The notes beneath the pieces are model-generated. The model was not told the origin of the DNA, did not search any database, and saw nothing but the letters and a program-made list of their open reading frames with translations. 40,079 bases of DNA from Kayfunavirus PDP21P1, in the sequence record OZ035821.1; one strand, given 5' to 3'. The translations under genes and the position numbers were made by a program. Positions 1-33,347 of the stretch are shown in pieces (position 1 is the stretch's first letter; every line of letters begins with the position of its first letter).

Positions 1-29
1 TACAAAACGATTAAAGGAGGTGGTAAAAC

Positions 30-293
30 ATGACGCAGATGGACTTAGAGAAGTTCCTCTTGATGCTGGATACTGAACGTGCTAGACTCATGCTGCAAGA
101 CCTGCGGGATGACTCTAAGCGTTCACCTCAGCTTTACAACGCCATTGAGAAGCTACTGGCTCGTCACAACTTCGTGCTAAGCAAGGTGTCTGTTGACGAG
201 AAGACGCTCGCTGATATGGAGGCTTTGAACAGGGAGTACGATAAGGTGCTCTCAGCTACTGAGGATAACGACACCGGGTATGGTGTACAGTAA
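30..293 (+). CDS. 18: Terminase small subunit (DNA maturation protein A), T7 gp18 homolog
   Basis: 87-aa ORF with AGGAGG RBS upstream. Sequence (LxMLDTE...RSPQLYNAIEKLLxRH) parallels T7 gp18 as recalled. Lies directly upstream of the spanin and large-terminase genes. Confidence 0.8.
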   Translation: MTQMDLEKFLLMLDTERARLMLQDLRDDSKRSPQLYNAIEKLLARHNFVLSKVSVDEKTLADMEALNREYDKVLSATEDNDTGYGVQ

Positions 294-297
294 GTGT

Positions 298-342
298 TAG
301 ACTCAAGGTCATTACTATATGTAGTGGCCTTTATGGTTAACA
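298..342 (+). promoter_or_regulatory. Conserved hairpin (AAGGTCA-N13-TGGCCTT), candidate RNase III processing site between genes 18 and 18.5
   Basis: One of five copies of the same stem motif (others at 4139-4156, 5162-5187, 9026-9051, 16437-16461). This one sits where T7 has the R18.5 RNase III site. Confidence 0.3.
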
Positions 343-394
343 CACACTACGGGCGGAGACGCTACGTGGATTCTGAGAAATGAGGAGGGCAACT

Positions 395-832
395 ATGCTC
401 GAACTTTTATGTAAAGCAATCCCGTGGCTGGTTGCAGGACTCCTGTTCTGTTCTGGCTACTGGGTGGCAGACAATAAGTGGGAGGCGAAGGTAAACAATG
501 AGTACATCACGAAACTTGAGGCACGAGAGAATCAACGGGCTGCTGTCCAAGGTGAAATCAACAAAGTGTCAGCCGAGTGGCAAGACAAGATGTCCGCGCT
601 GGAAGGCTCTACTGATAGGATTATTGCTGACCTTAACCGTGATAACAAGCGGCTGCGCGTCCGAGTCAACACCTCAGGTCTCACCGAGTCAGATGTCAGT
701 AGATGCTTCCCTAATGGTAGAGTCGAACTACACCCAGAAACTTCTAAAAGTCTTATCCGATTAACTCAGGAGGCAGACCTTAAGGAGAAGGCGCTTCAGG
801 ACACAATAAGGAGGCTCCAAGGTGTTAAGTGA
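395..832 (+). CDS. 18.5: i-spanin (Rz-like), T7 gp18.5 homolog
   Basis: N-terminal transmembrane helix (IPWLVAGLLFCSGYW) and strong similarity to T7 gp18.5 (EGSTDRIIxDLxxDNKRLRVRV). Start moved to ATG 395, which has a GAGGAGG RBS; the track start at 380 lies inside that RBS. Confidence 0.8.
   Translation: MLELLCKAIPWLVAGLLFCSGYWVADNKWEAKVNNEYITKLEARENQRAAVQGEINKVSAEWQDKMSALEGSTDRIIADLNRDNKRLRVRVNTSGLTESDVSRCFPNGRVELHPETSKSLIRLTQEADLKEKALQDTIRRLQGVK
498..764 (+). CDS. 18.7: o-spanin (Rz1-like lipoprotein) embedded in the +1 frame of gene 18.5, T7 gp18.7 homolog
   Basis: Embedded out-of-frame ORF with a signal peptide and lipobox (LTVITSGC). Closely parallels T7 gp18.7 (MSTxRxLR...GCASES...MVSVDxSLMVExN). 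Confidence 0.75.
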   Translation: MSTSRNLRHERINGLLSKVKSTKCQPSGKTRCPRWKALLIGLLLTLTVITSGCASESTPQVSPSQMSVDASLMVESNYTQKLLKVLSD

Positions 833-1259
833 TTACTACAAAGTGGACCCGGCTAGTCCATCCGGTCTGGTCTCCGTTAGGACTGGAAAGCCTGTGGGGA
901 CATTAAGTCGGATGGGATATTGGATAGTACAGACACGAAGTCTAGGCAGTAAGCGGGCCCATCGTGTGATATGGGAACTAACCAATGGTCCTATACCGCA
1001 TGGTATGCAAATAGACCACATCGACAGGAACCCTAGCAATAATACCTTAAGTAACTTACGGCTCGTTACTGCCGCTGAAAACACTTGGAATACTGGTAGC
1101 CATTATGACTCTAAGACAGGAGTGAAGTGCGTTACCCGTCACCAGAATGGTTATAGGATTCAGGTTAAACGCGGGAATGCCTATATGCGAACAACACGTC
1201 CCACTTTAGAGGAGGCTATCGCTGTCCGGGACCTAATGCTGGAGGGACTATATGTCTAA
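822..1259 (+). CDS. HNH homing endonuclease with AP2-like DNA-binding domain
   Basis: Motifs YYKVDPxSPSGLV, [35 protein letters not shown], and a C-terminal GYRIQV...[15 protein letters not shown]2-like segment. GTG start with GGAGG upstream. Absent from the T7 backbone at this position; AT-rich relative to flanks. Confidence 0.75.
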
Positions 1260-3018
1260 GAAAACACCCGCTGAAAGACAGGCAGAAATGGTCCAAAGGA
1301 TGAGGGACGACTTCGTGTTCTTCATCTTCGTTCTCTGGAAAGCACTAAGTCTTCCGGTTCCAACCCGCTGCCAGATAGATATGTGTAAGAAGCTGGCTGC
1401 TGGGGATAATCGCCGCTTCATCCTTCAGGCGTTCCGTGGTATTGGCAAGTCGTTTTTGACCTGTGGCTTTGTGGTCTGGAAGCTATGGAATAACCCAGAC
1501 TTGAAGTTCATGATTGTGTCGGCCTCAAAGGAACGAGCCGATGCGAACTCCATCTTCATCAAGCGAATCATCGACCTCATGCCTCAGCTTCAGGAACTCA
1601 AACCTAAACAGGGGCAGCGAGATGCGGTTATCAGCTTCGACGTGGGACCTGCCAAGCCAGACCACTCACCTTCGGTTAAGTCCGTTGGTATCACTGGTCA
1701 GTTGACTGGTAGTCGTGCTGACATCCTGATTGCCGATGACGTGGAGGTTCCGAACAACTCAGCGACTCAGGCTGCACGAGACCGTCTATCAGAGCTTGTG
1801 AAAGAGTTCGACGCTATCCTGAAGCCGGGAGGTACGATCATCTATCTGGGTACTCCTCAGAACGAGATGACCCTGTACCGTGAGCTGGAAGGTCGTGGGT
1901 ACACCACTACTATCTGGCCCGCTCGTTATCCACGCGACAGGAAGGACTGGCAGTCTTACGGCGACCGTCTGGCTCCTATGCTTCAGGCAGAGCTGGAAGA
2001 GGACCCTGAGTCCTTCTACTGGCGTCCGACTGATGAAGTACGCTTCGATGATACGGACCTGAAGGAACGTGAGCTGTCCTACGGTAAAGCTGGCTTCGCT
2101 CTACAGTTCATGCTTAACCCGAACCTGAGTGATGCCGAGAAGTACCCTCTGAAGCTCCGTGACCTTATCGTAGCCGACTTGGACCCAGCGTCTAGCCCAA
2201 TGGTATACCAATGGCTTCCTAACCCTCAGAACAAGCGTGAGGACGTTCCTAACGTTGGACTCATGGGTGACTCATACCACACGTATCAGACTGTAGGTTC
2301 TGCCTTCAGTTCGTACACCCAGAAGATTCTAGTCATTGACCCTAGTGGTCGTGGTAAGGATGAAACTGGTTATGCGGTACTGTACCAGCTAAACGGCTAC
2401 ATCTTCGCTATGGAAGTTGGCGGTATGCGAGGTGGCTATGAAGACTCTACGCTGGAAGCCTTGGCTAAGATTGGTCGTAAGTGGAAGGTCCACGAATACG
2501 TCATTGAGGGTAACTTCGGTGATGGTATGTACCTTGAGCTATTCAAGCCTGTAGCTTCCCGTATCCATCCTGCGGCTGTAACTGAAGTGAAGAGTAAGGG
2601 TCAGAAAGAACTCCGCATCTGTGACGTTCTGGAGCCTATCATGGGGTCTCACCGACTTATCGTCAACGCTTCTGCTATCGTCCAAGACTACCAGACAGCC
2701 TCTGACAAGGATGGCGTTCGTAACCCTATCTACTCTCTCTTCTACCAGATGACACGTATCTCTCGTGAACGTGGGGCCTTGGCACACGATGACCGACTTG
2801 ATGCGCTGGCTATCGGTGTACAGTTCTTCGTTGAGTCGATGGCTAAGGATGCCAACAAAGGCGAACGTGAAGTCACTGAGGAGTGGCTGGAGGAACAGAT
2901 GGAGAACCCACGTAAAGGCTTCGAGTCCATCCACACTGAGTTCTGGGACAATGGGGTCCGGGTAACTCACGATACGGACGACGAGCTTGGACTAGGGTCC
3001 TACGTTACGTTCCACTAG
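1252..3018 (+). CDS. 19: Terminase large subunit (DNA maturation protein B), T7 gp19 homolog
   Basis: 588 aa. N-terminus [24 protein letters not shown]...[12 protein letters not shown]...[20 protein letters not shown] matches T7 gp19 almost residue for residue; length close to T7 (586 aa). Confidence 0.93.
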
Positions 3019-3474: not shown

Positions 3475-3799
3475 CGCAATCATGGTAACGATTCATGAGC
3501 GGAAGACCTAAGGTCAGTACGTGGATAAAGACTCACTCTACTGACCTTAGCTACTGTAGTCAAGGACTTTAGGTAACACCTTAATAGAAGCTCACCTAGG
3601 GTCATCCTACTTATTGGTCTATCCTAGTGTCGCCTGACCTACGGTCACTCGATGAGTTTGGACCAAAAGTTTGAGACCACATCTCACAGTTCAAGAACCT
3701 CAAGTCTCCCCATAGGCCCTCTTTAAGTCCAGACCAAAGGCCCTACCCGTTACTGCTCCTTGCAGTCACAGACAGTCTATCATAAGGTTGGACTGATGG

Positions 3800-4020
3800 T
3801 CAAGACGTTAGGTCGACGATAGGTCTAGGCTATGGCTTAGGGTAGGACGATAGGTAGGGACTATGGGTCTTCTTTGAGTCTCTATCTGTATAGTGTTATA
3901 GTATAACATTACGTCCTACACCATAAGTCTCACCAACCTACAGTCCTACAACCTACAGTCCTACAACCTACAGTCACAACCATAAGACACCAACACCTAC
4001 AGTCATAGACCTACAGTTAC
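3800..4020 (+). repeat. Short direct-repeat arrays in the terminal-repeat / concatemer-junction region
   Basis: Tandem CTACAACCTACAGTC and CCTACAGT units (about 3937-4016) and GATAGGT/TAGGGTAGG units (about 3806-3866), within a roughly 1-kb non-coding stretch between gene 19.5 and the first early gene. Analogous to the CCTAAAG-type repeats flanking the T7 terminal repeat. Confidence 0.45.
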
Positions 4021-4130
4021 TAGACACAGAGCTATAGACTTAAGGTCTAAGACATGTTAGTCAAAGACTATATCCTCTTAGTCACCATGAGGCCGACGAT
4101 AGCTTAATCAATATTATTTCAAATTACCTA

Positions 4131-4160
4131 TTGACTATAGGTCAAGGATATGGCCTAATA
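4131..4160 (+). promoter_or_regulatory. Candidate host sigma70 early promoter (A1-like)
   Basis: TTGACT (4131-4136), then 17-18 bp, then a weak -10 (CCTAAT/CTAATA); upstream of the first early gene. Overlaps an AGGTCA-N6-TGGCCT hairpin. Confidence 0.25.
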
Positions 4161-4270
4161 GCTTCCGTCAACACGACACGGCAACAACCGGATAGTGAAG
4201 ACGCCGGTCCGGTCCGGTTAAGTAGTCAGCCTGTAAGACATACGAACAACAGGCAACCGACAGAAAGTAG

Positions 4271-6012: not shown

Positions 6013-8694
6013 ATGAGCGTCATCTCTATTGACAGACACGACTTCTCTGATGTGTCGAACGCCATTGAGCCGTTTAACCTGCTGGCAGACCACTACGGGC
6101 AAGACCTTGCAGTAAAACAGCTTCAGCTTGAGCATGAGGCATACACTGAAGGCGAGCGACGTTTCATCAAAAACCTTGAGCGACAGACTGAGCGCGGGGA
6201 ACTGGCAGACAATCAGGTCGCCAAGCCTTTGATGCAGACTCTGGTTCCTAAGATTGCGCAAGCCGTCAGGGAGTGGCATGAAGGCCCAGACGGGAAGCTG
6301 TCAACCTCTCGTCCTAGCGTAGCGTTCACCATGTTGAGCACTGAAGAGAGGGCCGTTAAAGACCGTTCTCTACGCATCTCCTGCGAGTCTGCTGCTGTCA
6401 TCATACTGAAGGTCATCCTCTCCAAGCTGGTCAAGCCTGAAGGGATACCGATTACACCGATGGCCTCCGCGTTAGGTCGCACACTTGAGGACGAAATCCG
6501 CTTCGGTCGCATCCGTGACAAGGAGAAAGAGCACTTCAAGAAGGCGATAGCTGATAACCTGAATAAGCGGGCCGGGGCGTCCTACAAGAAAGCCTACATG
6601 CAAGCGGTCGAGGCATCCATGCTGGAGAAAGGCCAACTGGAAGATGCGTGGGGGACTTGGAGTCCTACAGAGGCTGTCCACGTTGGCATCAAGATGCTCG
6701 AGATTGTCATCCAGTCAACACAACTGGTCGAGCTTAAGCGGTACGGCGCTGGCAATGCAGCGGCTGACGTAGAGATGGTCCACCTGTCAGACTTCTGGGT
6801 CAAGAAGATGGCACAACGAGGATTCAGCCTTGCGGGTATCGCTCCAGTCTACCAGCCTTGCGTCGTTCCACCTAAGCCGTGGACTGGTGTCGTAGGTGGT
6901 GGGTACTGGGCCAAAGGTCGCAGACCACTACCACTGATTCGCTTAGGGTCTAAGTCTGCGGTAGCACGTTACGAAGACGTGTACATGCCTGAAGTATATG
7001 ACGCTGTTAACATTATCCAGAATACACCTTGGAAAGTGAACAAGAAGGTTCTGGACGTGGTGAACATGGTCGAGAAGTTGCACAACACGCCTATTGATGA
7101 CATCCCTCAGATGGAGCCACTGAAGCCTGAGGACTATGTGGGTGAGACTGAAGAAGAACTCAAAGCATGGAAGAAAGCTGCTGCTGGTATCTACCGCCGC
7201 GAGAAGGCCCGACAGTCACGCAGATTGTCGCTGAGTTTTATCGTCAGCCAGGCGAACAAGTTCTCGCAGTTTAAGGCTATCTGGTTCCCATACAACATGG
7301 ACTGGCGCGGTCGCGTCTACGCTGTACCGATGTTCAACCCTCAGGGTAACGACATGCAGAAAGGTCTCCTGACTTTGGCAGTCGGTAAGCCTATTGGCGC
7401 TGATGGTTTCAAATGGCTGAAGGTCCACGGTGCAAACTGTGCGGGTGTTGATAAAGTCACCTTCGAGGAGCGCATCAAGTGGGTGGAAGATAACCACGAC
7501 AACATCATGGCTGCTGCTAAAGCGCCGATGGATAGTATTGAGTGGTGGGGAAAGTTAGACTCTCCGTTCTGTTTCCTCGCGTTCTGCTTCGAGTATGCTG
7601 GCGTAATGCACCACGGCCTTTCTTACTCCTGCTCGCTACCGATAGCGTTCGATGGGTCCTGCTCTGGGATTCAGCACTTCAGCGCGATGCTTCGTGATCA
7701 CATCGGTGGACACGCAGTAAACCTGACGCCATCCGGTAAGGTACAAGACATCTACCGCATCGTGTCCGACCGCATTGAGGAGGAGCTTAAAGTCCTGCTG
7801 GTTAACGGCACGGACAATGAGATGGTAACTCACGAGGACAAGAAAACTGGTGAGATTACCGAACGTCTCAAGCTGGGGACACGAGAGCTGGCCCGGCAGT
7901 GGCTTACTTACGGTATGTCACGTAAGGTCACTAAGCGTTCAGTCATGACTCTGGCCTACGGGTCGAAGGAGTACGGATTCGCAGACCAAGTTTACGAGGA
8001 CATCGTGATGCCAGCGATTGACTCAGGGTCTGGCGCTATGTTCACCGAGCCAAGCCAAGCGTCTCGCTTCATGGCTAAGATGATTTGGGAAGCTGTGAGT
8101 GTGACCGTAGTTGCTGCTGTTGACGCGATGAAGTGGCTTCAGGGTGCTGCCAAGCTGCTGGCTGCTGAAGTGAAGGACAAGAAGACTGGAGAAATCCTGA
8201 AGCCTTGCCTTCCAGTACACTGGGTAACACCTGATGGTTTCCCTGTCTGGCAGGAATACCGCAAGAAGGATACCACGCGTCTGAACCTGATGTTCTTAGG
8301 GTCATTCAACCTTCAGCCTACCGTCAACAAAGGCACGAAGAAGGAGCTGGATAAGCACAAGCAGGAGTCAGGAATTAGCCCGAACTTCGTCCACTCACAA
8401 GATGGTAGCCACCTACGCAAGACTGTAGTCCACACTCACCGCAAGTATGGCGTGATGTCATTCGCAGTGATTCACGATAGCTTCGGGACAATCCCGGCTG
8501 ACGCTGAGTATCTGTTCCGTGGTGTCCGTGAGACTATGGTCGAGACCTACCGCGACAACGATGTGCTGCTTGACTTCTACGAGCAGTTCGAATACCAGCT
8601 TCACGAGAGTCAGCGCGACAAGTTGCCTGAGCTTCCGAAGAAAGGTAAACTGAATATCGAAGACATCTTGTCTTCAGACTTTGCATTCGCTTAA
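6013..8694 (+). CDS. 1: DNA-directed RNA polymerase (single-subunit), T7 gp1 homolog
   Basis: 893 aa. Near-collinear with T7 RNAP as recalled (PWTGxxGGGYWAxGRRPL, FPYNMDWRGRVYA, FCFLAFCFEYAG, HDSFGTIPADA, C-terminal FAFA). Confidence 0.97.
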   Translation: MSVISIDRHDFSDVSNAIEPFNLLADHYGQDLAVKQLQLEHEAYTEGERRFIKNLERQTERGELADNQVAKPLMQTLVPKIAQAVREWHEGPDGKLSTSRPSVAFTMLSTEERAVKDRSLRISCESAAVIILKVILSKLVKPEGIPITPMASALGRTLEDEIRFGRIRDKEKEHFKKAIADNLNKRAGASYKKAYMQAVEASMLEKGQLEDAWGTWSPTEAVHVGIKMLEIVIQSTQLVELKRYGAGNAAADVEMVHLSDFWVKKMAQRGFSLAGIAPVYQPCVVPPKPWTGVVGGGYWAKGRRPLPLIRLGSKSAVARYEDVYMPEVYDAVNIIQNTPWKVNKKVLDVVNMVEKLHNTPIDDIPQMEPLKPEDYVGETEEELKAWKKAAAGIYRREKARQSRRLSLSFIVSQANKFSQFKAIWFPYNMDWRGRVYAVPMFNPQGNDMQKGLLTLAVGKPIGADGFKWLKVHGANCAGVDKVTFEERIKWVEDNHDNIMAAAKAPMDSIEWWGKLDSPFCFLAFCFEYAGVMHHGLSYSCSLPIAFDGSCSGIQHFSAMLRDHIGGHAVNLTPSGKVQDIYRIVSDRIEEELKVLLVNGTDNEMVTHEDKKTGEITERLKLGTRELARQWLTYGMSRKVTKRSVMTLAYGSKEYGFADQVYEDIVMPAIDSGSGAMFTEPSQASRFMAKMIWEAVSVTVVAAVDAMKWLQGAAKLLAAEVKDKKTGEILKPCLPVHWVTPDGFPVWQEYRKKDTTRLNLMFLGSFNLQPTVNKGTKKELDKHKQESGISPNFVHSQDGSHLRKTVVHTHRKYGVMSFAVIHDSFGTIPADAEYLFRGVRETMVETYRDNDVLLDFYEQFEYQLHESQRDKLPELPKKGKLNIEDILSSDFAFA

Positions 8695-18505: not shown

Positions 18506-19103
18506 TAACATCATGGTGCACATTAAATCTGGTGAACTCGGTGAACTCCTAATGGGACAATACCGAGCCAAGCCATAGGGAGGATGTATGAGAGGCAAGA
18601 AGTTAATTCTTGAGGCCACTGAGACTGGCTGCATAATCCCTACGTCACATAAATTGAATAAGGATGGATACTTCCGAAAGAGGACTAACGGTGTCCTTGA
18701 GATGTATCATAGAACTGTATGGATTAAAGCTAATGGTCCAATACCTGACGGTTTCGAAGTAGACCACAAGTGTCGTAATAGAGCTTGTTGCAACGTCGAA
18801 CATCTACAAGTATTAGACCGGGACTCACACTTAGTCAAGACCAACAAAGAGCGATACGCTGCTAGGAAGCTAGAAGCACGAGACTACTGGGTAGAGACTG
18901 GGTGTACTGGAACGAAGTTAGCCGAAGTATTCAATGTGTCGTTCTCAGCCGCCTGTGGGTGGATTAGAGAGTGGAAGGCGTAGAGACTATCCGAAAGGAG
19001 TAGGGCCGTGGGTGAGATTCCCACGTAACCCGAAGCGCCAGACAGTCACCTCAAAGACTGATGATATAGTCCGACACTTCCAGTAATGGGAGAATACAGA
19101 AAG
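18506..19103 (+). mobile_element. Group I intron interrupting the DNA polymerase gene; carries an HNH endonuclease ORF
   Basis: Stop codon immediately after exon 1. Exon 2 restores DELQIACRTQEI...LDTEGKIGPTWKECH, the conserved T7 gp5 C-terminus, in frame. 5' splice site after U18505 with P1 pairing (exon GUGCAU : intron GUGCAC at 18516-18521, U.G at the junction). Intron ends in G19103. Possible P10 (intron CAUC 18509-18512 : exon 2 GAUG). Confidence 0.7.
18588..18983 (+). CDS. Intron-encoded HNH homing endonuclease
   Basis: 131-aa ORF within the intron, in a different frame from the polymerase, with GGGAGG RBS. Motif NGPIPDGFEVDHKCRNRACCNVEHLQVL; same family as the ORFs at 9230 and 32898. 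Confidence 0.8.
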   Translation: MRGKKLILEATETGCIIPTSHKLNKDGYFRKRTNGVLEMYHRTVWIKANGPIPDGFEVDHKCRNRACCNVEHLQVLDRDSHLVKTNKERYAARKLEARDYWVETGCTGTKLAEVFNVSFSAACGWIREWKA

Positions 19104-22010: not shown

Positions 22011-23579
22011 ATGGCTGAACGTGAAGGGTTCGCTGCTGAAGGAGCCAAAGCGGTCTATGACCGACTGAAGAACGGTAGACAGCCATATGAGACACGCGCT
22101 CAGAACTGTGCTGCTGTCACTATCCCGTCACTGTTTCCTAAGGAGTCCGACAACTCGTCTACTGAGTACACAACTCCGTGGCAAGCTGTAGGTGCTCGCT
22201 GTTTGAACAACTTGGCTGCAAAGCTGATGTTGGCATTATTCCCTCAGTCACCGTGGATGCGACTGACAGTCTCCGAATATGAGGCCAAGACCTTGAGTCA
22301 GGACTCAGAGGCTGCTGCTCGTGTTGACGAAGGGCTTGCTATGGTCGAGCGTGTGTTGATGGCCTACATGGAGACTAACAGTTTCCGTGTGCCATTGTTC
22401 GAAGCTCTGAAGCAGCTTATCGTCTCCGGTAACTGTCTGCTTTACATTCCAGAGCCTGAACAGGGTACTTACAGTCCTATGCGAATGTACCGCTTAGTGT
22501 CCTACGTTGTTCAACGTGATGCTTTCGGTAATATCTTGCAGATTGTGACTCTCGACAAGGTAGCGTTTAGTGCTCTACCGGAAGACGTTAAGTCACAACT
22601 CAACGCAGACGACTATGAGCCTGACACAGAGCTGGAAGTATATACGCACATCTACCGTCAAGACGACGAGTATCTACGTTATGAGGAAGTGGAAGGCATT
22701 GAGGTAGCAGGGACCGAGGGTTCCTACCCACTGACTGCATGTCCATACATCCCGGTACGAATGGTTCGACTGGATGGTGAAGACTATGGTCGTTCTTACT
22801 GCGAGGAGTATCTGGGAGACCTGAACTCGCTGGAGACGATTACAGAAGCTATCACCAAAATGGCTAAGGTAGCCTCCAAGGTGGTGGGCCTCGTTAACCC
22901 GAACGGTATCACGCAACCTCGTCGTCTGAACAAGGCGGCTACAGGTGAGTTCGTTGCCGGTCGCGTTGAGGACATCAACTTCCTGCAACTGACTAAGGGT
23001 CAGGACTTTACGATTGCCAAGTCGGTGGCTGATGCTATCGAGCAACGTTTAGGCTGGGCCTTCCTTCTTAATAGTGCTGTTCAGCGTAATGCCGAGCGAG
23101 TCACTGCTGAAGAGATTCGTTATGTTGCTGGCGAACTGGAGGCGACCTTAGGTGGCGTGTACTCAGTACAATCCCAAGAGCTTCAGTTACCTATCGTCCG
23201 TGTGCTGATGAACCAACTTCAGTCTGCTGGCATGATTCCTGACCTTCCGAAAGAAGCGGTAGAGCCTACTGTCTCCACTGGTCTGGAAGCGTTAGGTCGT
23301 GGTCAGGACTTGGAGAAGCTAACTCAGGCGGTTAACATGATGACTGGTCTTCAGCCGCTATCTCAGGACCCGGACATCAACTTGCCGACCCTTAAGCTAC
23401 GACTCCTGAACGCTCTGGGTATCGACACCGCTGGCCTACTCCTGACGCAAGACGAGAAGATTCAGCGCATGGCTGAGCAGTCGTCTCAACAGGCAGTTGT
23501 CCAAGGTGCTAGTGCTGCTGGTGCTAACATGGGTGCTGCTGTAGGTCAGGGAGCTGGTGAGGACATGGCTCAAGCCTAA
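22011..23579 (+). CDS. 8: Head-tail connector (portal) protein, T7 gp8 homolog
   Basis: 522 aa. YETRAQNCAxxTIPSLFPK, YRLxSYVVQRDAFGN, RMVRLDGExYGRSY, GLVNPxGITQPRRL and TAEEIRYVA are collinear with T7 gp8. Confidence 0.95.
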   Translation: MAEREGFAAEGAKAVYDRLKNGRQPYETRAQNCAAVTIPSLFPKESDNSSTEYTTPWQAVGARCLNNLAAKLMLALFPQSPWMRLTVSEYEAKTLSQDSEAAARVDEGLAMVERVLMAYMETNSFRVPLFEALKQLIVSGNCLLYIPEPEQGTYSPMRMYRLVSYVVQRDAFGNILQIVTLDKVAFSALPEDVKSQLNADDYEPDTELEVYTHIYRQDDEYLRYEEVEGIEVAGTEGSYPLTACPYIPVRMVRLDGEDYGRSYCEEYLGDLNSLETITEAITKMAKVASKVVGLVNPNGITQPRRLNKAATGEFVAGRVEDINFLQLTKGQDFTIAKSVADAIEQRLGWAFLLNSAVQRNAERVTAEEIRYVAGELEATLGGVYSVQSQELQLPIVRVLMNQLQSAGMIPDLPKEAVEPTVSTGLEALGRGQDLEKLTQAVNMMTGLQPLSQDPDINLPTLKLRLLNALGIDTAGLLLTQDEKIQRMAEQSSQQAVVQGASAAGANMGAAVGQGAGEDMAQA

Positions 23580-23675: not shown

Positions 23676-24560
23676 ATGTCTCAATCAGTTTATGCCGAGT
23701 TCGGCGTTAGCTCTAATGCAATCACTGGTTCCGTTGAGGACCTGAACGAACACCAGAAGTCTATGCTTGAACAGGACGTAGCTGTTCGTGATGGCGACGA
23801 TGCTATTACCTTCAAGCAACTGGAAGCTGAAACCGAAGAGGCTACCGAAGAAGACGATAACGTCGACGAGACTGAAGGTGAAGAAGACCACGAGTCCGAT
23901 GACGAAGAGTCTGAGACCGATGGTGAGCAGCCTGAGTTCATCGAACTAGGTGATGCACCGAAAGAGCTGACTGAAAGTGTCACCGCTCTGGATGAAAACG
24001 AAGCTGCATTTGACGACATGGTGTCTTCTGCTGTAGAAGCTGGCAAGGTCACTGCTGATGAAATTACCGCTATCAAGGCTGAATACGCCAAGGACGGTAA
24101 GCTGTCTGACGCATCCTACGCTAAGTTGCAGGAAGCAGGTTACACCAAGCGTTTCGTAGATTCGTTTGTCCGTGGTCAGGAAGCTCTTGCTGAACAGTAT
24201 GCTGCTGGTGTGGTTCGCTACGCTGGTGGTGCTGAACAGTTTAATCGCATCCTGTCACACCTTGAGTCCAACGACCCGTCAACTCGTGAAGCACTGGAAG
24301 CTGCTATCGTTCGTAAGGACATTGCGACTACCAAAGCTCTGCTGAATCTGGCTGGCAAGACTCTGGGTAAAGCTGTAGGTGTTAAACCTCAGCGAACCAT
24401 CACCACTCAGGCTAAACCTGTGGTCGCACCTAAGGCTCCTCAGACCGAAGCATTCAGCTCCAAGGCTGACATGATTAAGGCTATGAGTGACCCGCGATAC
24501 CTGCGTGACGCTAAGTACACGATGGAAGTTCGCGCTAAGGTAGTTGCATCAAGCCTGTAG
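23676..24560 (+). CDS. 9: Capsid assembly (scaffolding) protein, T7 gp9 homolog
   Basis: 294 aa, highly acidic middle region. YAKLxExGYTKxFxDSxxRGQEAL and KAMSDPRY parallel T7 gp9. Confidence 0.9.
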   Translation: MSQSVYAEFGVSSNAITGSVEDLNEHQKSMLEQDVAVRDGDDAITFKQLEAETEEATEEDDNVDETEGEEDHESDDEESETDGEQPEFIELGDAPKELTESVTALDENEAAFDDMVSSAVEAGKVTADEITAIKAEYAKDGKLSDASYAKLQEAGYTKRFVDSFVRGQEALAEQYAAGVVRYAGGAEQFNRILSHLESNDPSTREALEAAIVRKDIATTKALLNLAGKTLGKAVGVKPQRTITTQAKPVVAPKAPQTEAFSSKADMIKAMSDPRYLRDAKYTMEVRAKVVASSL

Positions 24561-24561
24561 G

Positions 24562-24584
24562 ACTAAACTATCACTATAGGGAGA
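24562..24584 (+). promoter_or_regulatory. Phage RNA polymerase promoter (phi10-like, upstream of the capsid gene)
   Basis: ACTAAACTATCACTATA^GGGAGA (initiating GGGAGA as in the T7 class III consensus). Confidence 0.85.
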
Positions 24585-24686
24585 CCAAGAGACAGACTCA
24601 AGGTTTCCCTATTACTTCAGTCCATACGGATTGGGCGTACAGTAAGTAATAAACTTTATCTTTCAATTGAATAGGAGAATTATCAT

Positions 24687-25733
24687 ATGGCAAACGTTCC
24701 GGGTCAGAAAATTGGTACAGACCAAGGTAAAGGCAAATCTGGTTCCGACGCTCTGGCGTTGTTCCTGAAGGTCTTTGCTGGTGAAGTCCTGACCGCATTC
24801 ACTCGCCGCTCTGTAACTGCTGACAAGCATATTGTCCGTACCATTCAGAACGGTAAGTCTGCTCAGTTCCCGGTCATGGGTCGCACCTCTGGTGTGTATC
24901 TGGCTCCGGGTGAGCGACTGTCTGATAAGCGTAAAGGTATCAAACATACCGAGAAAGTGATTACCATTGATGGTCTGCTGACTGCCGATGTGATGATTTT
25001 CGACATTGAAGACGCGATGAACCACTACGACGTGGCTGGCGAGTATTCCAACCAGTTGGGCGAAGCTCTGGCTATCGCTGCTGATGGTGCGGTGCTGGCT
25101 GAAATGGCTATCCTGTGTAACCTCCCGGCTGCATCCAACGAGAACATCGCTGGTCTGGGTACTGCGTCCGTACTGGAAGTTGGTAAGAAAGCTGACCTCG
25201 ACACCCCGGCTAAACTTGGTGAAGCAATCATTGGTCAACTGACCATTGCTCGTGCGAAGCTGACCTCCAACTACGTACCTGCTGGCGACCGTTACTTCTA
25301 CACCACGCCGGACAACTACTCTGCAATCCTCGCTGCTCTGATGCCTAACGCTGCTAACTATGCTGCGCTGATTGACCCAGAGACTGGTAACATCCGTAAC
25401 GTGATGGGCTTCGTTGTTGTTGAAGTTCCGCATCTTGTACAGGGTGGCGCTGGTGAGACCCGTGGTGCTGATGGTATCACTATCGCTTCCGGCCAGAAAC
25501 ACGCATTCCCGGCAACTGCTGATGGTGACGACGTTAAAGTTGCTATGGACAACGTTGTAGGTCTGTTCTCTCACCGTTCTGCTGTGGGTACTGTGAAGCT
25601 GCGTGACTTGGCGCTGGAACGTGACCGTGACGTCGATGCTCAGGGCGACCTGATTGTTGGTAAGTACGCTATGGGTCACGGTGGTCTGCGTCCTGAAGCG
25701 GCTGGCGCACTGGTTTTCAGCCCAGCGGCGTAA
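24687..25733 (+). CDS. 10: Major capsid protein 10A, T7 gp10 homolog
   Basis: 348 aa. ALFLKVFxGEVLTAF, GKSAQFPV, HTEKVITIDGLLTADV, ALMPNAANYAALIDPE, SAVGTVKLRDLALER, YAMGHGGLRPEAAGA match T7 gp10A. Strong RBS. Confidence 0.96.
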   Translation: MANVPGQKIGTDQGKGKSGSDALALFLKVFAGEVLTAFTRRSVTADKHIVRTIQNGKSAQFPVMGRTSGVYLAPGERLSDKRKGIKHTEKVITIDGLLTADVMIFDIEDAMNHYDVAGEYSNQLGEALAIAADGAVLAEMAILCNLPAASNENIAGLGTASVLEVGKKADLDTPAKLGEAIIGQLTIARAKLTSNYVPAGDRYFYTTPDNYSAILAALMPNAANYAALIDPETGNIRNVMGFVVVEVPHLVQGGAGETRGADGITIASGQKHAFPATADGDDVKVAMDNVVGLFSHRSAVGTVKLRDLALERDRDVDAQGDLIVGKYAMGHGGLRPEAAGALVFSPAA

Positions 25734-25864
25734 GCACCTTTAGCCAACCTAACGTCGCTACAGTAGCGGCTGCACCTGAAGAGGAGACTCTAACTCCTCA
25801 ACAGAAAGCTGCGCGTACTCGTGCTGCGAACAGGGCCGCTAAACTGGCTGAGTCCAACAACTAA
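24687..25864 (+). CDS. 10: Minor capsid protein 10B (predicted -1 frameshift product of gene 10)
   Basis: Slippery heptamer G-GTT-TTC at 25712-25718, four codons before the 10A stop. The -1 frame is open from 25718 to a TAA at 25862-25864, adding about 48 aa (QPSGVSTF...LAESNN). Same arrangement as T7 10A/10B. Confidence 0.5.
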
Positions 25865-25867
25865 TTG

Positions 25868-25908
25868 AAACCCCTTGGGTGCCTTCGGGTGCTTGAGGGG
25901 TTTTTTGC
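25868..25908 (+). terminator. Tphi-like intrinsic terminator downstream of the capsid gene
   Basis: CCCCTTGGGTGCC-TTCG-GGTGCTTGAGGGG stem-loop with a UUCG tetraloop, followed by TTTTTT. Architecture and position match T7 Tphi. Confidence 0.75.
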
Positions 25909-25927
25909 TTAAAGTGAGAGGAGACTT

Positions 25928-26494
25928 ATGGCTCAATACATTCCACTGAATGCTAACGATGACTTAGACGCCATCAACGATATGTTAGCTGCTATCGGTG
26001 AACCAGCAGTCCTACAGCTTGACGAAGGCAATGCTGACGTCTCGAACGCACAACGTATCCTGCATCGTGTCAATCGTCAGGTCCAAGCTAAAGGCTGGAA
26101 CTTTAACATCAACGAAGCTGCTGTACTGACACCTGATGTCCAAGACAACAGGATTCGATTCCTACCGTCATACCTTCGTGTAATGACTGCCGGGGCCACC
26201 AGCTACTACAGCAACATGGGTGGATACCTGTACGACCTGTCCACTCAGTCAACCACTTTCACCGACCCTATCACGGTAGAGCTTGTGGAGATGAAGCCAT
26301 TCTCCGAGATGCCTGTGGTCTTCAGGGACTACATCGTCACTAAAGCTAGCCGTGAGTTCAACGCTAAGTTCTTCGGTAGCCCAGAGTCAGAGCTATACCT
26401 TCGTGAGCAGGAAGCAGAACTCTATCAGCAGGTTATGGAGTACGAGATGGACACTGGTCGCTACAACATGATGTCTGACATCGGGAGGGACTAA
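25928..26494 (+). CDS. 11: Tail tubular protein A, T7 gp11 homolog
   Basis: 188 aa. ILxxINRQxQxxGWxFNI, YIVTKASRxFNxxFFGxPE and MEYEMD parallel T7 gp11. Confidence 0.92.
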   Translation: MAQYIPLNANDDLDAINDMLAAIGEPAVLQLDEGNADVSNAQRILHRVNRQVQAKGWNFNINEAAVLTPDVQDNRIRFLPSYLRVMTAGATSYYSNMGGYLYDLSTQSTTFTDPITVELVEMKPFSEMPVVFRDYIVTKASREFNAKFFGSPESELYLREQEAELYQQVMEYEMDTGRYNMMSDIGRD

Positions 26495-26721
26495 TGGCTA
26501 GTCACAATCTGAAGATTCACCGCCAGCACTTTGGTCCGGTACAGCTAGGCCTAAAGACAGCAGAGCTGAGACTTAACGACCGGGACTTTAAGGTTGGCGA
26601 CTGGCTTATCCTGAATGAGTGGGACAACGGGTATACTGGACAACAGGTAGCACGTAAGGTTGTCCACATTGCTGACGTTGGTGACATCGCTGGCGGATAC
26701 GTCCTAATGAGTATGATTTAA
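26494..26721 (+). CDS. DUF3850 / ASCH-like small protein inserted between tail tube genes
   Basis: 75-aa ORF; start overlaps the gene 11 stop (TAATG), GGGAGGG RBS. HNLKIHRQHFGPVQLGLKTAELRLNDRDFKVGDWLILNEWD...YTG fits the DUF3850 (PUA/ASCH-like) signature as recalled. No gene lies between 11 and 12 in T7. Confidence 0.55.
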   Translation: MASHNLKIHRQHFGPVQLGLKTAELRLNDRDFKVGDWLILNEWDNGYTGQQVARKVVHIADVGDIAGGYVLMSMI

Positions 26722-26730
26722 GGAGGGCCT

Positions 26731-29088
26731 ATGCCACTAATTACTCAATCAATAAAAAATCTTAAAGGTGGCATTAGCCAGCAGCCCGATATACTGAGGT
26801 TCTCAGACCAAGGCGAGGCACAGGTTAACTGCTGGTCATCCGAGAGTGATGGCCTCCAGAAGCGTCCACCTACAGTCTTCAAGCGACGTCTTAACATCGA
26901 CGTTGGGAGCAACCCTAAGTTCCACCTGATTAACCGTGATGAGCAGGAGCAGTATTACATCGTGTTCAACGGGTCCAACATTCAGGTAGTTGACTTGAGC
27001 GGTAATCAATACTCAGTTTCCGGTGAGGTAGACTACGTTAAGTCGTCCAACCCGCGAGATGACATCCGTGTCGTTACCGTTGCAGACTATACGTTCATCG
27101 TGAACCGTAAGGTTGTCGTTAAAGGTGGGAGCGAGAAGGCAAACTCTGGTTATAATCGTAAAGCTCGTGCTTTAATTAACCTGCGTGGTGGACAGTATGG
27201 TCGCACCCTTAAGGTAGGAATCAACGGAGGAGTTAAGGTTGAGCATAAGTTGCCAGCTGGTAATGATGCCGAGAATGACCCTCCTAAGGTGGATGCTCAG
27301 GCCATCGGTGCAGCTCTGAGAGACCTTCTTGTTGCTGCTTACCCTACCTTCACGTTCGACCTTGGGTCTGGCTTCCTGTTAATCACTGCCCCTTCAGGGA
27401 CTGACATTAACTCAGTGGAGACGGAGGATGGCTACGCTAACCAGCTAATCAGCCCAGTACTCGACACGGTGCAAACAATCTCTAAGTTGCCTCTTGCAGC
27501 TCCAAATGGGTACATCATTAAGATTCAAGGTGAGACCAACAGTAGCGCCGATGAATACTACGTGATGTATGACTCCAACACTAAGACGTGGAAGGAGACA
27601 GTGGAGCCGGGAGTTGTCACTGGGTTCGATGTCACCACAATGCCACATGCTCTGGTCAGACAGTCTGATGGCTCCTTTGAGTTCAAGACTCTTGATTGGT
27701 CCAAGCGTGGTGCTGGTAACGATGACACAAACCCTATGCCTAGCTTCGTGGATGCTACGATTAATGATGTGTTCTTCTACAGGAACAGACTTGGGTTCTT
27801 ATCTGGTGAGAACGTAATCATGAGCCGTTCAGCCAGCTACTTTGCGTTCTTCCCTAAGAGTGTGGCGACACTGAGTGATGATGACCCTATTGATGTAGCT
27901 GTAAGTCACCCTCGAATCTCAATCCTTAAGTATGCCGTTCCGTTTAGCGAGCAGCTACTACTTTGGTCGGATGAGGTTCAGTTCGTGATGACAAGCTCTG
28001 GGGTACTTACCTCGAAGTCTATCCAGCTTGATGTAGGCTCAGAGTTTGCCTTAGGCGATAATGCCCGACCGTTCGCTGTAGGACGCTCAGTCTTCTTCTC
28101 AGCTCCTCGGGGGTCATTCACCAGCATTAAGCGATACTTCGCTGTAGCAGATGTGTCTGACGTGAAGGATGCCGATGATACCACTGGCCACGTACTGTCC
28201 TACATCCCTAACGGGGTGTTTGATATTCAAGGTACAGGGACTGAGAACTACATCTGCGTCAACTCTACAGGTGCATACAACCGAATCTACATCTACAAGT
28301 TCTTGTTTAAGGACGGAGTACAGCTTCAAGCCTCTTGGTCACACTGGGAGTTCCCTAAAGATGATAAGATTCTGGCGTCTGCTTCTATTGGCTCTACCAT
28401 GTTCATTGTTCGTCAGCACCAAGGAGGGGTAGACATTGAGCACCTTAAGTTCATCAAGGAGGCAACTGACTTCCCGTCAGAGCCATATAGACTACACATT
28501 GACTCCAAGGTGTCTATGGTAATTCCAATTGGCTCATATAATACTGACACCTATAAGACTACGGTTGACATTGGTGCTGCTTATGGTGGCAACGCTCCGT
28601 CTCCCGGTCGGTACTATCTGATTGACAGTCAGGGTGCTTATGTGGACCTTGGGGACTTGTCCAGTATCTCTACTGTGATTACCCTCAACGGCGATTGGTC
28701 AGGACGTACAGTGTTCATCGGACGGCCCTATCTGATGTCCTACAAGTTCTCACGGTTCCTGATTAAGATTGAAGATGATAGTGGCACTCAGTCTGAAGAC
28801 ACTGGTCGTCTACAGCTTCGTCGGGCTTGGGTCAACTACAAGGACACTGGCGCTCTGAGACTCATTGTCAGAAACGGTGAGCGGGAGTTCGTGAATACCT
28901 TCAACGGGTACACCCTTGGTCAGCAAACCATCGGTACTACAAACATTGGTGACGGGCAGTATCGATTCGCTATGAATGGTAACGCATTAACCACGAGTCT
29001 AACCTTAGAGTCCGACTATCCTACCCCAGTGTCCATCGTTGGGTGTGGCTGGGAGGCATCATACGCTAAGAAAGCTCGTTCAGTCTAA
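26731..29088 (+). CDS. 12: Tail tubular protein B, T7 gp12 homolog
   Basis: 785 aa, in the gene 12 position; length and N-terminus (LKGGISQQPD) consistent with T7 gp12. Confidence 0.92.
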   Translation: MPLITQSIKNLKGGISQQPDILRFSDQGEAQVNCWSSESDGLQKRPPTVFKRRLNIDVGSNPKFHLINRDEQEQYYIVFNGSNIQVVDLSGNQYSVSGEVDYVKSSNPRDDIRVVTVADYTFIVNRKVVVKGGSEKANSGYNRKARALINLRGGQYGRTLKVGINGGVKVEHKLPAGNDAENDPPKVDAQAIGAALRDLLVAAYPTFTFDLGSGFLLITAPSGTDINSVETEDGYANQLISPVLDTVQTISKLPLAAPNGYIIKIQGETNSSADEYYVMYDSNTKTWKETVEPGVVTGFDVTTMPHALVRQSDGSFEFKTLDWSKRGAGNDDTNPMPSFVDATINDVFFYRNRLGFLSGENVIMSRSASYFAFFPKSVATLSDDDPIDVAVSHPRISILKYAVPFSEQLLLWSDEVQFVMTSSGVLTSKSIQLDVGSEFALGDNARPFAVGRSVFFSAPRGSFTSIKRYFAVADVSDVKDADDTTGHVLSYIPNGVFDIQGTGTENYICVNSTGAYNRIYIYKFLFKDGVQLQASWSHWEFPKDDKILASASIGSTMFIVRQHQGGVDIEHLKFIKEATDFPSEPYRLHIDSKVSMVIPIGSYNTDTYKTTVDIGAAYGGNAPSPGRYYLIDSQGAYVDLGDLSSISTVITLNGDWSGRTVFIGRPYLMSYKFSRFLIKIEDDSGTQSEDTGRLQLRRAWVNYKDTGALRLIVRNGEREFVNTFNGYTLGQQTIGTTNIGDGQYRFAMNGNALTTSLTLESDYPTPVSIVGCGWEASYAKKARSV

Positions 29089-29112: not shown

Positions 29113-29135
29113 CCTTAACTATCACTATAGGGACT
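29113..29135 (+). promoter_or_regulatory. Phage RNA polymerase promoter (phi13-like)
   Basis: CCTTAACTATCACTATA^GGGACT. Confidence 0.75.
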
Positions 29136-29619: not shown

Positions 29620-30021
29620 ATGACCAAAGTTTGTTTAACTTGTGGTCTGGAGAAACCAATCACTGAGTTTCACAAACAGGCCACCAAGAAAGACCCTGAG
29701 CGCCGAAAACCTCATTGCAGAAGCTGCTGGTCCAAGGTAAGGAGGGATAGAACACCTGAGCATAATAGGCGATACAACCTGAAGAAATTCTACGGAATAA
29801 CACCTGAGGAGTATGATAAAATGCTTCGTGAGCAAGGTGGGACCTGTGCCATTTGTCATGGTACAGAGACTGTAGGGAGACTAGCTGTAGATCACTGCCA
29901 TTCTACAGGTAGGGTTAGGGGTCTGTTATGCACCAACTGCAATCAAGCTATAGGCAAGCTGAAGGATGACTCTCAGTTGCTTAGGAACGCTATCAACTAT
30001 CTGGAGGTGAACCGTGTGTGA
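29620..30021 (+). CDS. Endonuclease VII-like (HNH superfamily) nuclease, inserted between genes 13 and 14
   Basis: Cys/His-rich motif CAICHG...LAVDHCHSTGRVRGLLCTNCNQAIG, characteristic of the T4 endonuclease VII N-terminal zinc-binding nuclease domain. AAGGAG RBS. Confidence 0.75.
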   Translation: MTKVCLTCGLEKPITEFHKQATKKDPERRKPHCRSCWSKVRRDRTPEHNRRYNLKKFYGITPEEYDKMLREQGGTCAICHGTETVGRLAVDHCHSTGRVRGLLCTNCNQAIGKLKDDSQLLRNAINYLEVNRV

Positions 30022-32897: not shown

Positions 32898-33347
32898 ATG
32901 AAGAACGGGACAGCCAGTGAGAGACTGGCAGAACTGTCAGTAGCTGAAGAGTCTGGCTGTATCCGATTCACAGGCCACTTAGACGGAGAAGGATACGGAA
33001 GGATAATGGTGGCTAGGGTTAAGTATATGGCACATCGTCTCTCCTACTCCATAAATAAGGGGCCAATACCAGATGGCTATGTTGTTAGGCATAAATGTGA
33101 TAATCCATCATGCATAAATCCTGAACACCTTGAAGTAGGAACGCAGGCTGACAACATTGCAGATAAGGTATCCAGAGGCCGACAGGCAAGAGGTAGTGGA
33201 GCAGGCAGAGCTATACTGACAGAGGAATCTGTTAGGGAAATACGCTCCAGTCCATTAAAAGTATCTGAGCTTTCCACCTTATACGGGGTAAGCGTCGTTT
33301 CCATACGAAATATATTGAGGAGAAAGACATGGCAACACGTGGTGTAA
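32898..33347 (+). CDS. HNH homing endonuclease inserted between genes 15 and 16
   Basis: CIRFTGHLDGEGYGRI, GPIPDGYVVRHKCDNPSCINPEHLEVGTQADNIADKVSRGRQ; same family as 9230 and 18588. AAGGAG RBS; AT-rich codon usage. Confidence 0.8.
   Translation: MKNGTASERLAELSVAEESGCIRFTGHLDGEGYGRIMVARVKYMAHRLSYSINKGPIPDGYVVRHKCDNPSCINPEHLEVGTQADNIADKVSRGRQARGSGAGRAILTEESVREIRSSPLKVSELSTLYGVSVVSIRNILRRKTWQHVV

Follow-up and report, generated by a model that had tools for sequence, protein, structure and literature searches.

An optional DUF3850 gene with a minimal ASCH fold between tail genes 11 and 12 of Kayfunavirus PDP21P1

The window analyzed here, a 40,079-bp stretch of DNA (OZ035821.1), is a complete Kayfunavirus genome in circularly permuted form, with the genes for the small terminase subunit, spanin, and large terminase at its 5' end. 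A 75-aa ORF lies within the tail gene block between genes 11 and 12, where the initial annotation had placed it; the flanking products matched phrog_446 (gp11) and phrog_457 (gp12). Genes for the portal, scaffold, and capsid are located 5' of gene 11, and those for gp13, an endonuclease VII-like gp13.5, and gp14 are located 3' of gene 12. The locus is 96–97% identical at the nucleotide level to those of ST31, CY1, and EcoDS1, and gene 11 itself shares 96–98% nucleotide identity with gene 11 of EcoDS1 and ST31. At least four free-standing HNH/EndoVII ORFs are present in the genome, all away from the 75-aa ORF. The features of the locus are summarized in Table 1.

Table 1 Features of the gene 11/12 region of PDP21P1 (window coordinates).
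Feature	Position	Strand	Remarks
phi10-like phage promoter core TCACTATAGGGA	24571..24582	+	nearest upstream; pattern search
Tphi-like intrinsic terminator ACCCCTTGGG...CTTGAGGGGTTTTTT	25870..25906	+	just 5' of gene 11; terminator scan and sequence
Gene 11 (tail tubular protein A / gatekeeper)	25928..26494	+	phrog_446, E 7.9e-68
Shine-Dalgarno-like GGGAGGG	26483..26489	+	within gene 11 3' end, 4 nt 5' of ORF ATG; read from sequence
DUF3850 / minimal ASCH-fold ORF	26494..26721	+	ATG start, 75 aa; stop codon included
Presence/absence cassette, 237 bp	26497..26733	+	relative to K1F-type 11/12 junction; ATG to ATG
Gene 12 Shine-Dalgarno AAGGAGGG	26720..26727	+	overlaps ORF stop codon; part of cassette; read from sequence
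Gene 12 (tail tubular protein B / nozzle)	26731..29088	+	phrog_457, E 1.4e-283
phi13-like phage promoter core	29122..29133	+	next downstream; pattern search; EcoDS1 phi13 at equivalent place

The translation of the ORF is MASHNLKIHRQHFGPVQLGLKTAELRLNDRDFKVGDWLILNEWDNGYTGQQVARKVVHIADVGDIAGGYVLMSMI. Both motifs from which the gene was first recognized are literally present, HxLKIHxxxF as H4-N-L-K-I-H-R-Q-H-F13 and RxNDRDFxVGDxLxLxEW as R26-LNDRDFKVGDWLILNE-W43. The gene 11 stop codon TAA (26492–26494) shares its last A with the ATG of the ORF (26494–26496), forming the TAATG overlap described in the initial annotation; the translational coupling that was read from it is a plausible consequence of this arrangement. 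At the other end, the ORF stop codon TAA (26719–26721) lies inside TAAGGAGGG, 4 nt upstream of the gene 12 ATG at 26731. The product is charge-neutral, with a pI of 6.9 and a net charge of approximately 0.

The assignment to DUF3850/ASCH was borne out by Pfam. DUF3850 (PF12961) was matched at 67.8 bits against a cut-off of 22.9 (E 9.3e-19), with residues 4–73 aligned to positions 2–76 of the 77-position model. The ASCH match (PF04266) was marginal and N-terminal only, with 25.4 bits against a cut-off of 21.2 (E 2.4e-5) over model positions 2–57 of 103. Since the product ends at residue 75 and matches the first 57 of 103 ASCH positions, it can be regarded as a truncated "mini-ASCH". It also matched PHROG 986 (E 1e-34), a family labeled "RNA-binding protein", and the PHROG search gave no structural-protein match. 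In the Pfam and PHROG scans, DUF3850 and ASCH alone were detected, and no nuclease domain (HNH, GIY-YIG, LAGLIDADG, or EndoVII) was found. The best PADLOC match, to PDC-M07B, was partial and non-significant (E 0.0078, 14 bits); PADLOC and NCBIfam scans of the product and its longer homologues likewise yielded no significant match.

An AF2 model built with 62 diverse homologues (pLDDT 95.3) consisted of a five-stranded barrel and one helix. This predicted fold is the same as that of the solved DUF3850 member 3IUW, a PUA-like β-barrel, and a BFVD fold search returned viral proteins that were unnamed or annotated as DUF3850 or ASCH, and nothing else. Our PDB searches gave a single close relative (E 5e-10, profile E 9e-24), 3IUW ("activating signal cointegrator" NP_814290.1 of Enterococcus faecalis V583). 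This structural-genomics protein comes from a bacterium, probably from a mobile element, and is not encoded in a T7-like tail operon. Since 3IUW itself has no assigned function, the match names the family and not the activity. The fold put forward in the initial annotation is hence upheld, while the "RNA-binding" attached to it is an inherited label that neither the pI of 6.9 nor the fusions to DNA- and nucleotide-related domains described below particularly favor.

About 160 phage genomes in GenBank have this ORF annotated. Kayfunavirus copies, including those of EcoDS1, ST31, and CR44b, share the position between genes 11 and 12 and the length, mostly with 95–99% amino acid identity. The EcoDS1 counterpart, AS9_0040, is an "unknown product" between genes 11 and 12; CR44b names the ORF gene 11.05, and the names used elsewhere are RNA-binding protein, DUF3850 protein, and activating signal cointegrator. 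Gene, position, and family label are therefore already in public records; as an optional annotated cassette, the finding is correct but ordinary, and as a genome feature it adds little. What is new is the exact boundaries of the cassette, the two-allele picture, the Tphi read-through context, and the GKER motif with its difference at K7, together with the recognition that the propagated "RNA-binding protein" label is without direct support.

The gene belongs to a 237-bp cassette, which comprises the ORF without its start codon and supplies gene 12 with a new ribosome-binding site and start codon. Among approximately 221 phage records with a close gene 11, about 161–164 carry it. It is absent from K1F, the type species, in which the end of gene 11 and the start of gene 12 coincide at base 22939 in a TAATG overlap, and from Midid (OX461104), whose locus is 93% identical to that of PDP21P1 and whose junction reads GACTAATGCCGCTT / GACTAATGCC. 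SFP21A also lacks the cassette, with a junction that differs from those of K1F and Midid and reads TAATAGGAGGTGATATG. The 11/12 junction is intact in all three of these phages. T7, which the initial annotation rightly described as having no gene here, has just a 23-nt spacer without an ORF between gene 11 (24228–24818) and gene 12 (24842–27226). Because Midid resembles K1F in the bases to either side of the junction, the states with and without the cassette look like old alleles swapped by recombination rather than the result of repeated deletions. The clean absence of the 237 bp from K1F and Midid indicates that the ORF is dispensable and not a part of the tail. Moreover, nature provides near-isogenic phages that differ in the cassette (EcoDS1-type versus Midid/K1F), which makes a phenotype screen straightforward.

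The dN/dS values among ORF orthologues were 0.04–0.28, including pairs with dS > 1, and those of gene 11 over the same pairs were 0.00–0.15. This range indicates that the ORF is selectively maintained. It co-diverges with gene 11 as far as Cronobacter phage B1 (76% nucleotide identity), which suggests a long residence at the locus. The DUF3850 match, the conservation in about 160 phage records, and the dN/dS range together place the ORF far beyond chance, and it is a genuine gene. We concluded that it is an accessory gene of EcoDS1-type Kayfunaviruses, kept by selection although dispensable, and that it encodes a stand-alone, minimal ASCH-fold barrel that is not a tail component.

With regard to transcription, the core TCACTATAGGGA had 16 matches in the pattern search against 3.2 expected, and no phage promoter core was found between the phi10-like core at 24571 and the phi13-like core at 29122. 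The Tphi-like terminator closely matches Tphi of T7, which lies at the equivalent place, and EcoDS1 has phiTE at the same place. Being downstream of this terminator and within the promoter-free stretch, the ORF would need terminator read-through for its expression. Expression of T7 genes 11 and 12 by read-through of Tphi is established. By its position the ORF is classed as a late gene, as had been claimed, and the accompanying claim that its product is made at high levels is doubtful, given its location downstream of Tphi.

We then compared the putative pocket with those of characterized ASCH enzymes. The ASCH octapeptide GxKxxExR occurs in the product as G19-L-K21-T-A-E24-L-R26. HMM and HH alignments to Escherichia coli YqfB (N4-acetylcytidine amidohydrolase, an ASCH protein of 103 aa; PDB 1TE7/9KYF) were gap-free over residues 4–26, with the octapeptide aligned column for column to YqfB G19-R-K21-T-I-T24-I-R26; K21/E24/R26 thus correspond to YqfB K21/T24/R26, and K7 to YqfB T7. 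In YqfB, K21/T24/R26 line a narrow pocket that takes the acetyl group of N4-acetylcytidine (ac4C), and position 7 is Ser/Thr in both YqfB and the TRIP4-like clade (preprint 10.64898/2026.08.01.741249). From the alignment columns, the octapeptide is read as the glutamate (GKER) form, whereas YqfB is of the GKTR type. The YqfB-type signature, Thr/Ser in the T24 column and Ser/Thr at position 7, is replaced by E24 and K7; the last ~28 residues of YqfB, including E74, are lacking; and the HMM similarity between the two proteins is marginal (E 0.1; hhalign probability 81%).

The GKER-type proteins TthASCH, EOLA1, and the ASCH domain of TRIP4 remove ac4C from tRNA, for which the Lys and Glu are essential (preprint 10.64898/2026.02.27.708502). 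This Lys–Glu dyad is present in our product as K21 and E24. In contrast, the GKER/TRIP4-like proteins (TthASCH, 2DP9; EOLA1; the TRIP4 domain) have 120–160 residues with extra helices and Ser/Thr at position 7, the pocket-facing residue that characterizes the TRIP4-like clade, while the PDP21P1 protein has 75 residues and Lys; Pfam also keeps DUF3850 separate. With only 75 residues, it has no counterpart of the C-terminal helical region of ASCH in which YqfB E74 and TthASCH Y81 are located. The substitution Tyr81Ala abolished nucleoside hydrolysis by TthASCH in vitro, and the GKER proteins ZmASCH and TRIP4 showed no hydrolysis of free ac4C in vitro (10.64898/2026.02.27.708502).

Among the 62 diverse DUF3850 homologues, K21, E24, R26, D29, L40, and E42 were invariant, and H4, K7 (96%), N28, R30, G35, and D36 were conserved in at least 95%. 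The PDP21P1 product has all the residues that typify the family (H4, K7, K21, E24, R26, N28, D29, R30, D36, and E42). Relative to characterized ASCH enzymes, DUF3850 adds an invariant N-D-R loop and E42; D29, R30, and E42 have no described counterpart there. Judged from the YqfB alignment, K7, K21, E24, R26, D29, and E42 would cluster in one pocket, and this pocket, hence its ligand, may differ from that of YqfB or TRIP4-like ASCH. On these comparisons the product is assigned to DUF3850 and the ASCH/PUA-like superfamily, is not of the YqfB type, and appears only loosely TRIP4-like.

DUF3850 is a very widespread mobile-element protein, and it is as a test case for this family that the PDP21P1 gene has value. 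A word-indexed search detected 1,774 family proteins at E < 1e-3 and an exhaustive search 4,953 representative clusters at E < 0.001, and tblastn revealed homologues in 556 phage records (T1-like, P2-like, Listeria, Enterococcus, Gordonia, and Vibrio phages, and others). The short members are mostly acidic, with a median pI of ~6. In agreement with the initial annotation, the papers mentioning DUF3850 in our literature search reported no function for any protein of the family.

The neighbors of DUF3850 genes were surveyed in 73 non-Kayfunavirus viral contigs, in which 142 distinct neighboring proteins were scanned. The genes were located in early or accessory regions and never in tail modules. 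In the T1-like phage SRT8, for example, the gene is one of a series of small ORFs, with a polynucleotide kinase encoded five genes away; in a P2-like phage it follows replication gene A directly, and in a 44-kb phage it is found within a cluster of small ORFs. An integrative and conjugative element (ICE) of S. mutans also carries one. Unannotated families were the most frequent neighbors, followed by DNA methyltransferases, integrases, P2 gpA-like nickase, NinB, PAPS reductase, and Ren; the methyltransferases, the commonest annotated neighbors, matched phrog_116, 56, and 1996 in 5, 4, and 4 of the 142 proteins, respectively. No single conserved partner gene was found among these neighbors.

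Fusions were also examined. Proteins in which the same DUF3850 domain is joined to a ParB-CTPase fold have parA as a gene neighbor and show enrichment in phages and prophages (PMC12704722); these two-domain proteins bind CTP via the ParB fold, whereas in PDP21P1 the domain stands by itself and neither ParB nor ParA is encoded nearby. Among 142 representatives surveyed, the fusions were to DUF551 (10), DUF7415 (2), and a dATP/dGTP pyrophosphohydrolase (1), and a LexA-type wHTH–DUF3850 fusion was also identified (P0103). A fusion to a T1-type Dam (PF05869) occurs in the viral contig L052; it was found in 2 phage records only and is taken as a hint. The N- and C-terminal extensions of longer homologues were mostly without a Pfam match. 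The fusion partners suggest a link to DNA and nucleotides that is no weaker than one to RNA, and the ParB-CTPase fold, Dam, dNTP pyrophosphohydrolase, and LexA-type wHTH in particular favor DNA or nucleotides over ac4C-containing RNA.

Here, we tentatively propose that the product is a cytoplasmic mini-ASCH that serves a modified nucleotide as enzyme or reader, most probably as a hydrolase of N4-acyl cytosine (ac4C-like), a reading we consider plausible while holding it at somewhat less than an even chance. The gene would be transcribed late from phi10-type promoters by Tphi read-through and translated in step with gp11 via the TAATG overlap. Probably working in the cytoplasm, this small protein would offer a pocket for a base or nucleotide. 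A nucleobase, either free or flipped out, would enter a cleft lined by the octapeptide residues K21, E24, and R26 together with the DUF3850-specific K7, N28, D29, R30, and E42; the N4-acyl group would then be hydrolyzed off cytosine, turning ac4C into C in a free nucleoside or nucleotide or at an exposed base of a tRNA. Hydrolysis seems the most likely chemistry because it has been demonstrated for other GKER ASCH proteins, and a small-ligand pocket fits a neutral or acidic protein better than electrostatic binding of RNA does. We know of no benefit that a T7-like phage would gain from ac4C removal. Our analysis establishes the gene, its fold and motif, the purifying selection on it, its dispensability, and the location of its homologues outside tail modules; the ligand, the catalysis, and the gain for the phage are inferred. 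Recent work on ac4C deacetylases of the ASCH type and on PUA-type mononucleotide sensors supplies concrete candidate ligands.

A different role is conceivable, though we regard it as unlikely: the protein may be a non-catalytic reader or sponge for a modified DNA-derived base or mononucleotide, such as m6dAMP, methylated dCMP, or m6A in DNA, and might blunt the host PUA-like-domain sensors Metis and PUA-Cal-HAD. PUA/ASCH-clan domains of anti-T7 defense systems sense m6dAMP, which comes from host-DNA degradation (10.1101/2025.11.05.686725; 10.64898/2026.01.15.699771). The Dam fusion of L052, the methyltransferases at the top of the annotated neighbors, the ParB-CTPase–DUF3850 proteins enriched in prophages (PMC12704722), the single dATP/dGTP pyrophosphohydrolase fusion, and the neutral product within an acidic family are all in line with such a sponge. 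However, the Dam fusion is rare, and methyltransferases are common anyway in phage accessory regions. The conserved residues of the pocket (K, E, R, D, E) make it polar and charged, unlike the aromatic cage typical of methyl-base readers, and the invariant Lys-Glu-Arg triad suggests catalysis. In addition, the ORF is placed late whereas counter-defense genes are usually early, PADLOC gave no significant link to a defense system, and the counter-defense reported against PUA-Cal-HAD consists of DNA-mimic proteins, not PUA proteins.

The label used by PHROG 986 and many GenBank records implies a generic RNA binder, possibly a translational regulator of late mRNAs that tunes, for example, translation of gene 12. 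The PUA-like superfamily does contain many RNA binders, and the ORF stop codon overlaps the Shine-Dalgarno sequence of gene 12. Nevertheless, the label derives from superfamily membership and not from an assay, neither the net charge of the product nor the median pI of its family suits it, and the stand-alone catalytic ASCH domains of YqfB and Afu3ASCH showed no tRNA binding alone. Gene 12 is expressed without the ORF in K1F, Midid, SFP21A, and T7, and the homologues occur in many unrelated operon contexts. We therefore give this explanation little credence.

The 11/12 junction is an insertion hot spot. In Hafnia phage yong1 an endonuclease ORF lies directly 3' of the DUF3850 ORF, Enterobacter phage B1 has an unannotated 158-aa ORF at the junction, and several Klebsiella T7-like phages carry endonuclease VII or a homing endonuclease between genes 11 and 12. 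These inserts, the presence/absence polymorphism of the cassette, and the HNH/EndoVII ORFs of the PDP21P1 genome would suit a selfish or neutral passenger, brought or kept by homing-endonuclease traffic with no benefit to the phage. Such a passenger is improbable: purifying selection is clear even at dS > 1, phage and bacterial homologues share the motif residues without exception, no nuclease domain is encoded, and the co-divergence of the ORF with gene 11 to Cronobacter phage B1 indicates long residence.

More speculatively, and at a still lower probability, DUF3850 could be a phage counter-measure whose barrel captures or disarms modified nucleotides of infection, with the cassette polymorphism mirroring hosts that have the corresponding sensors. 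Its targets may be methylated dNMPs from host-DNA breakdown, which are sensed by Metis and PUA-Cal-HAD, or ac4C from tRNA breakdown. Finally, a tail assembly factor or minor virion protein partnering gp11 and gp12 would suit the location of the ORF between the two tail genes and its overlap with the stop codon of gene 11, but is very unlikely. K1F, Midid, SFP21A, and T7 build tails without it, and siphoviruses, myoviruses, prophages, and an ICE encode close homologues elsewhere than in tail modules. Virion mass spectrometry of the related phage B1, which did not report the 75-aa product, is uninformative because this insensitive assay also missed gp11 and gp12.

An antisense ORF at 26517–26687 (56 aa) was rejected as spurious, being unsupported and located inside a gene under purifying selection. 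The Rfam scan of 25700–27000 returned a single sub-threshold snoRNA match attributable to chance and no RNA element explaining the locus. The PDP21P1 copy has Gly67 where its relatives have Glu, Asp, or Pro, a variable position, and otherwise shows no notable difference from them.

The junction between genes 11 and 12 is a site of repeated insertion. Some relatives carry an extra insert between the DUF3850 ORF and gene 12, which overlaps the start of gene 12. In Hafnia phage yong1 (L085 1334-1774), the second insert was an annotated endonuclease ORF, and in Enterobacter phage B1 it is ORF41, an unannotated hypothetical protein of 158 aa (PMC12785254).

The genome of the window is itself heavily colonised by homing-endonuclease-like genes. 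Four free-standing ORFs of the HNH/endonuclease VII type were identified, all on the plus strand and each located between conserved genes. One of them, gp13.5, is present in the window but absent from K1F, the Kayfunavirus type phage. The window is a complete, circularly permuted genome that opens with the terminase and spanin genes (1-3018).

Features of the window
Feature	Coordinates	Strand	Remark
Small terminase subunit	30-293		First gene of the window
Rz-like spanin	380-832
HNH/endonuclease VII-type ORF	822-1259	+	Between spanin 18.5 and terminase 19
Large terminase	1252-3018		Followed by the early region
RNA polymerase	6013-8694		After the terminase genes
HNH/endonuclease VII-type ORF	18588-18983	+	After DNA polymerase
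Capsid gene stop to Tphi	25734-25865		Counterpart of the EcoDS1 annotation 'region of similarity to gp10B'
Antisense ORF (56 aa)	26517-26687	-	Wholly within the DUF3850 gene
HNH/endonuclease VII-type ORF (gp13.5)	29620-30021	+	Between genes 13 and 14
HNH/endonuclease VII-type ORF	32898-33347	+	Between gp15 and gp16

Residue 67 of the DUF3850 ORF in the window is Gly (IAGGYV; codon at 26692-26694), whereas Glu, Asp or Pro occupies this position in almost every close relative (IAEGYV). This change is probably neutral, since residue 67 is variable across the DUF3850 family. No supporting evidence was obtained for the antisense ORF as a gene.

In the stretch between the capsid gene stop and Tphi, an intrinsic terminator homologue upstream of gene 11, a frameshift might extend the major capsid protein, as in T7 gene 10B.

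DUF3850 was also identified in other contexts among viral sequences. A single 232-aa ORF of the IMGVR contig L052 (IMGVR_UViG_3300010261_000168; 3530-4228) is a fusion of a T1-type DNA N6-adenine methyltransferase (PF05869, E 2e-35) and a C-terminal DUF3850 domain (E 5e-28), and the same fusion was found in only 2 GenBank phage records. In the T1-like Escherichia phage SRT8, the DUF3850 gene is surrounded by a run of small unknown ORFs and lies five genes upstream of polynucleotide kinase (L089 2489-2791 and 4266-4799); this arrangement hints faintly at a connection with RNA or tRNA repair.
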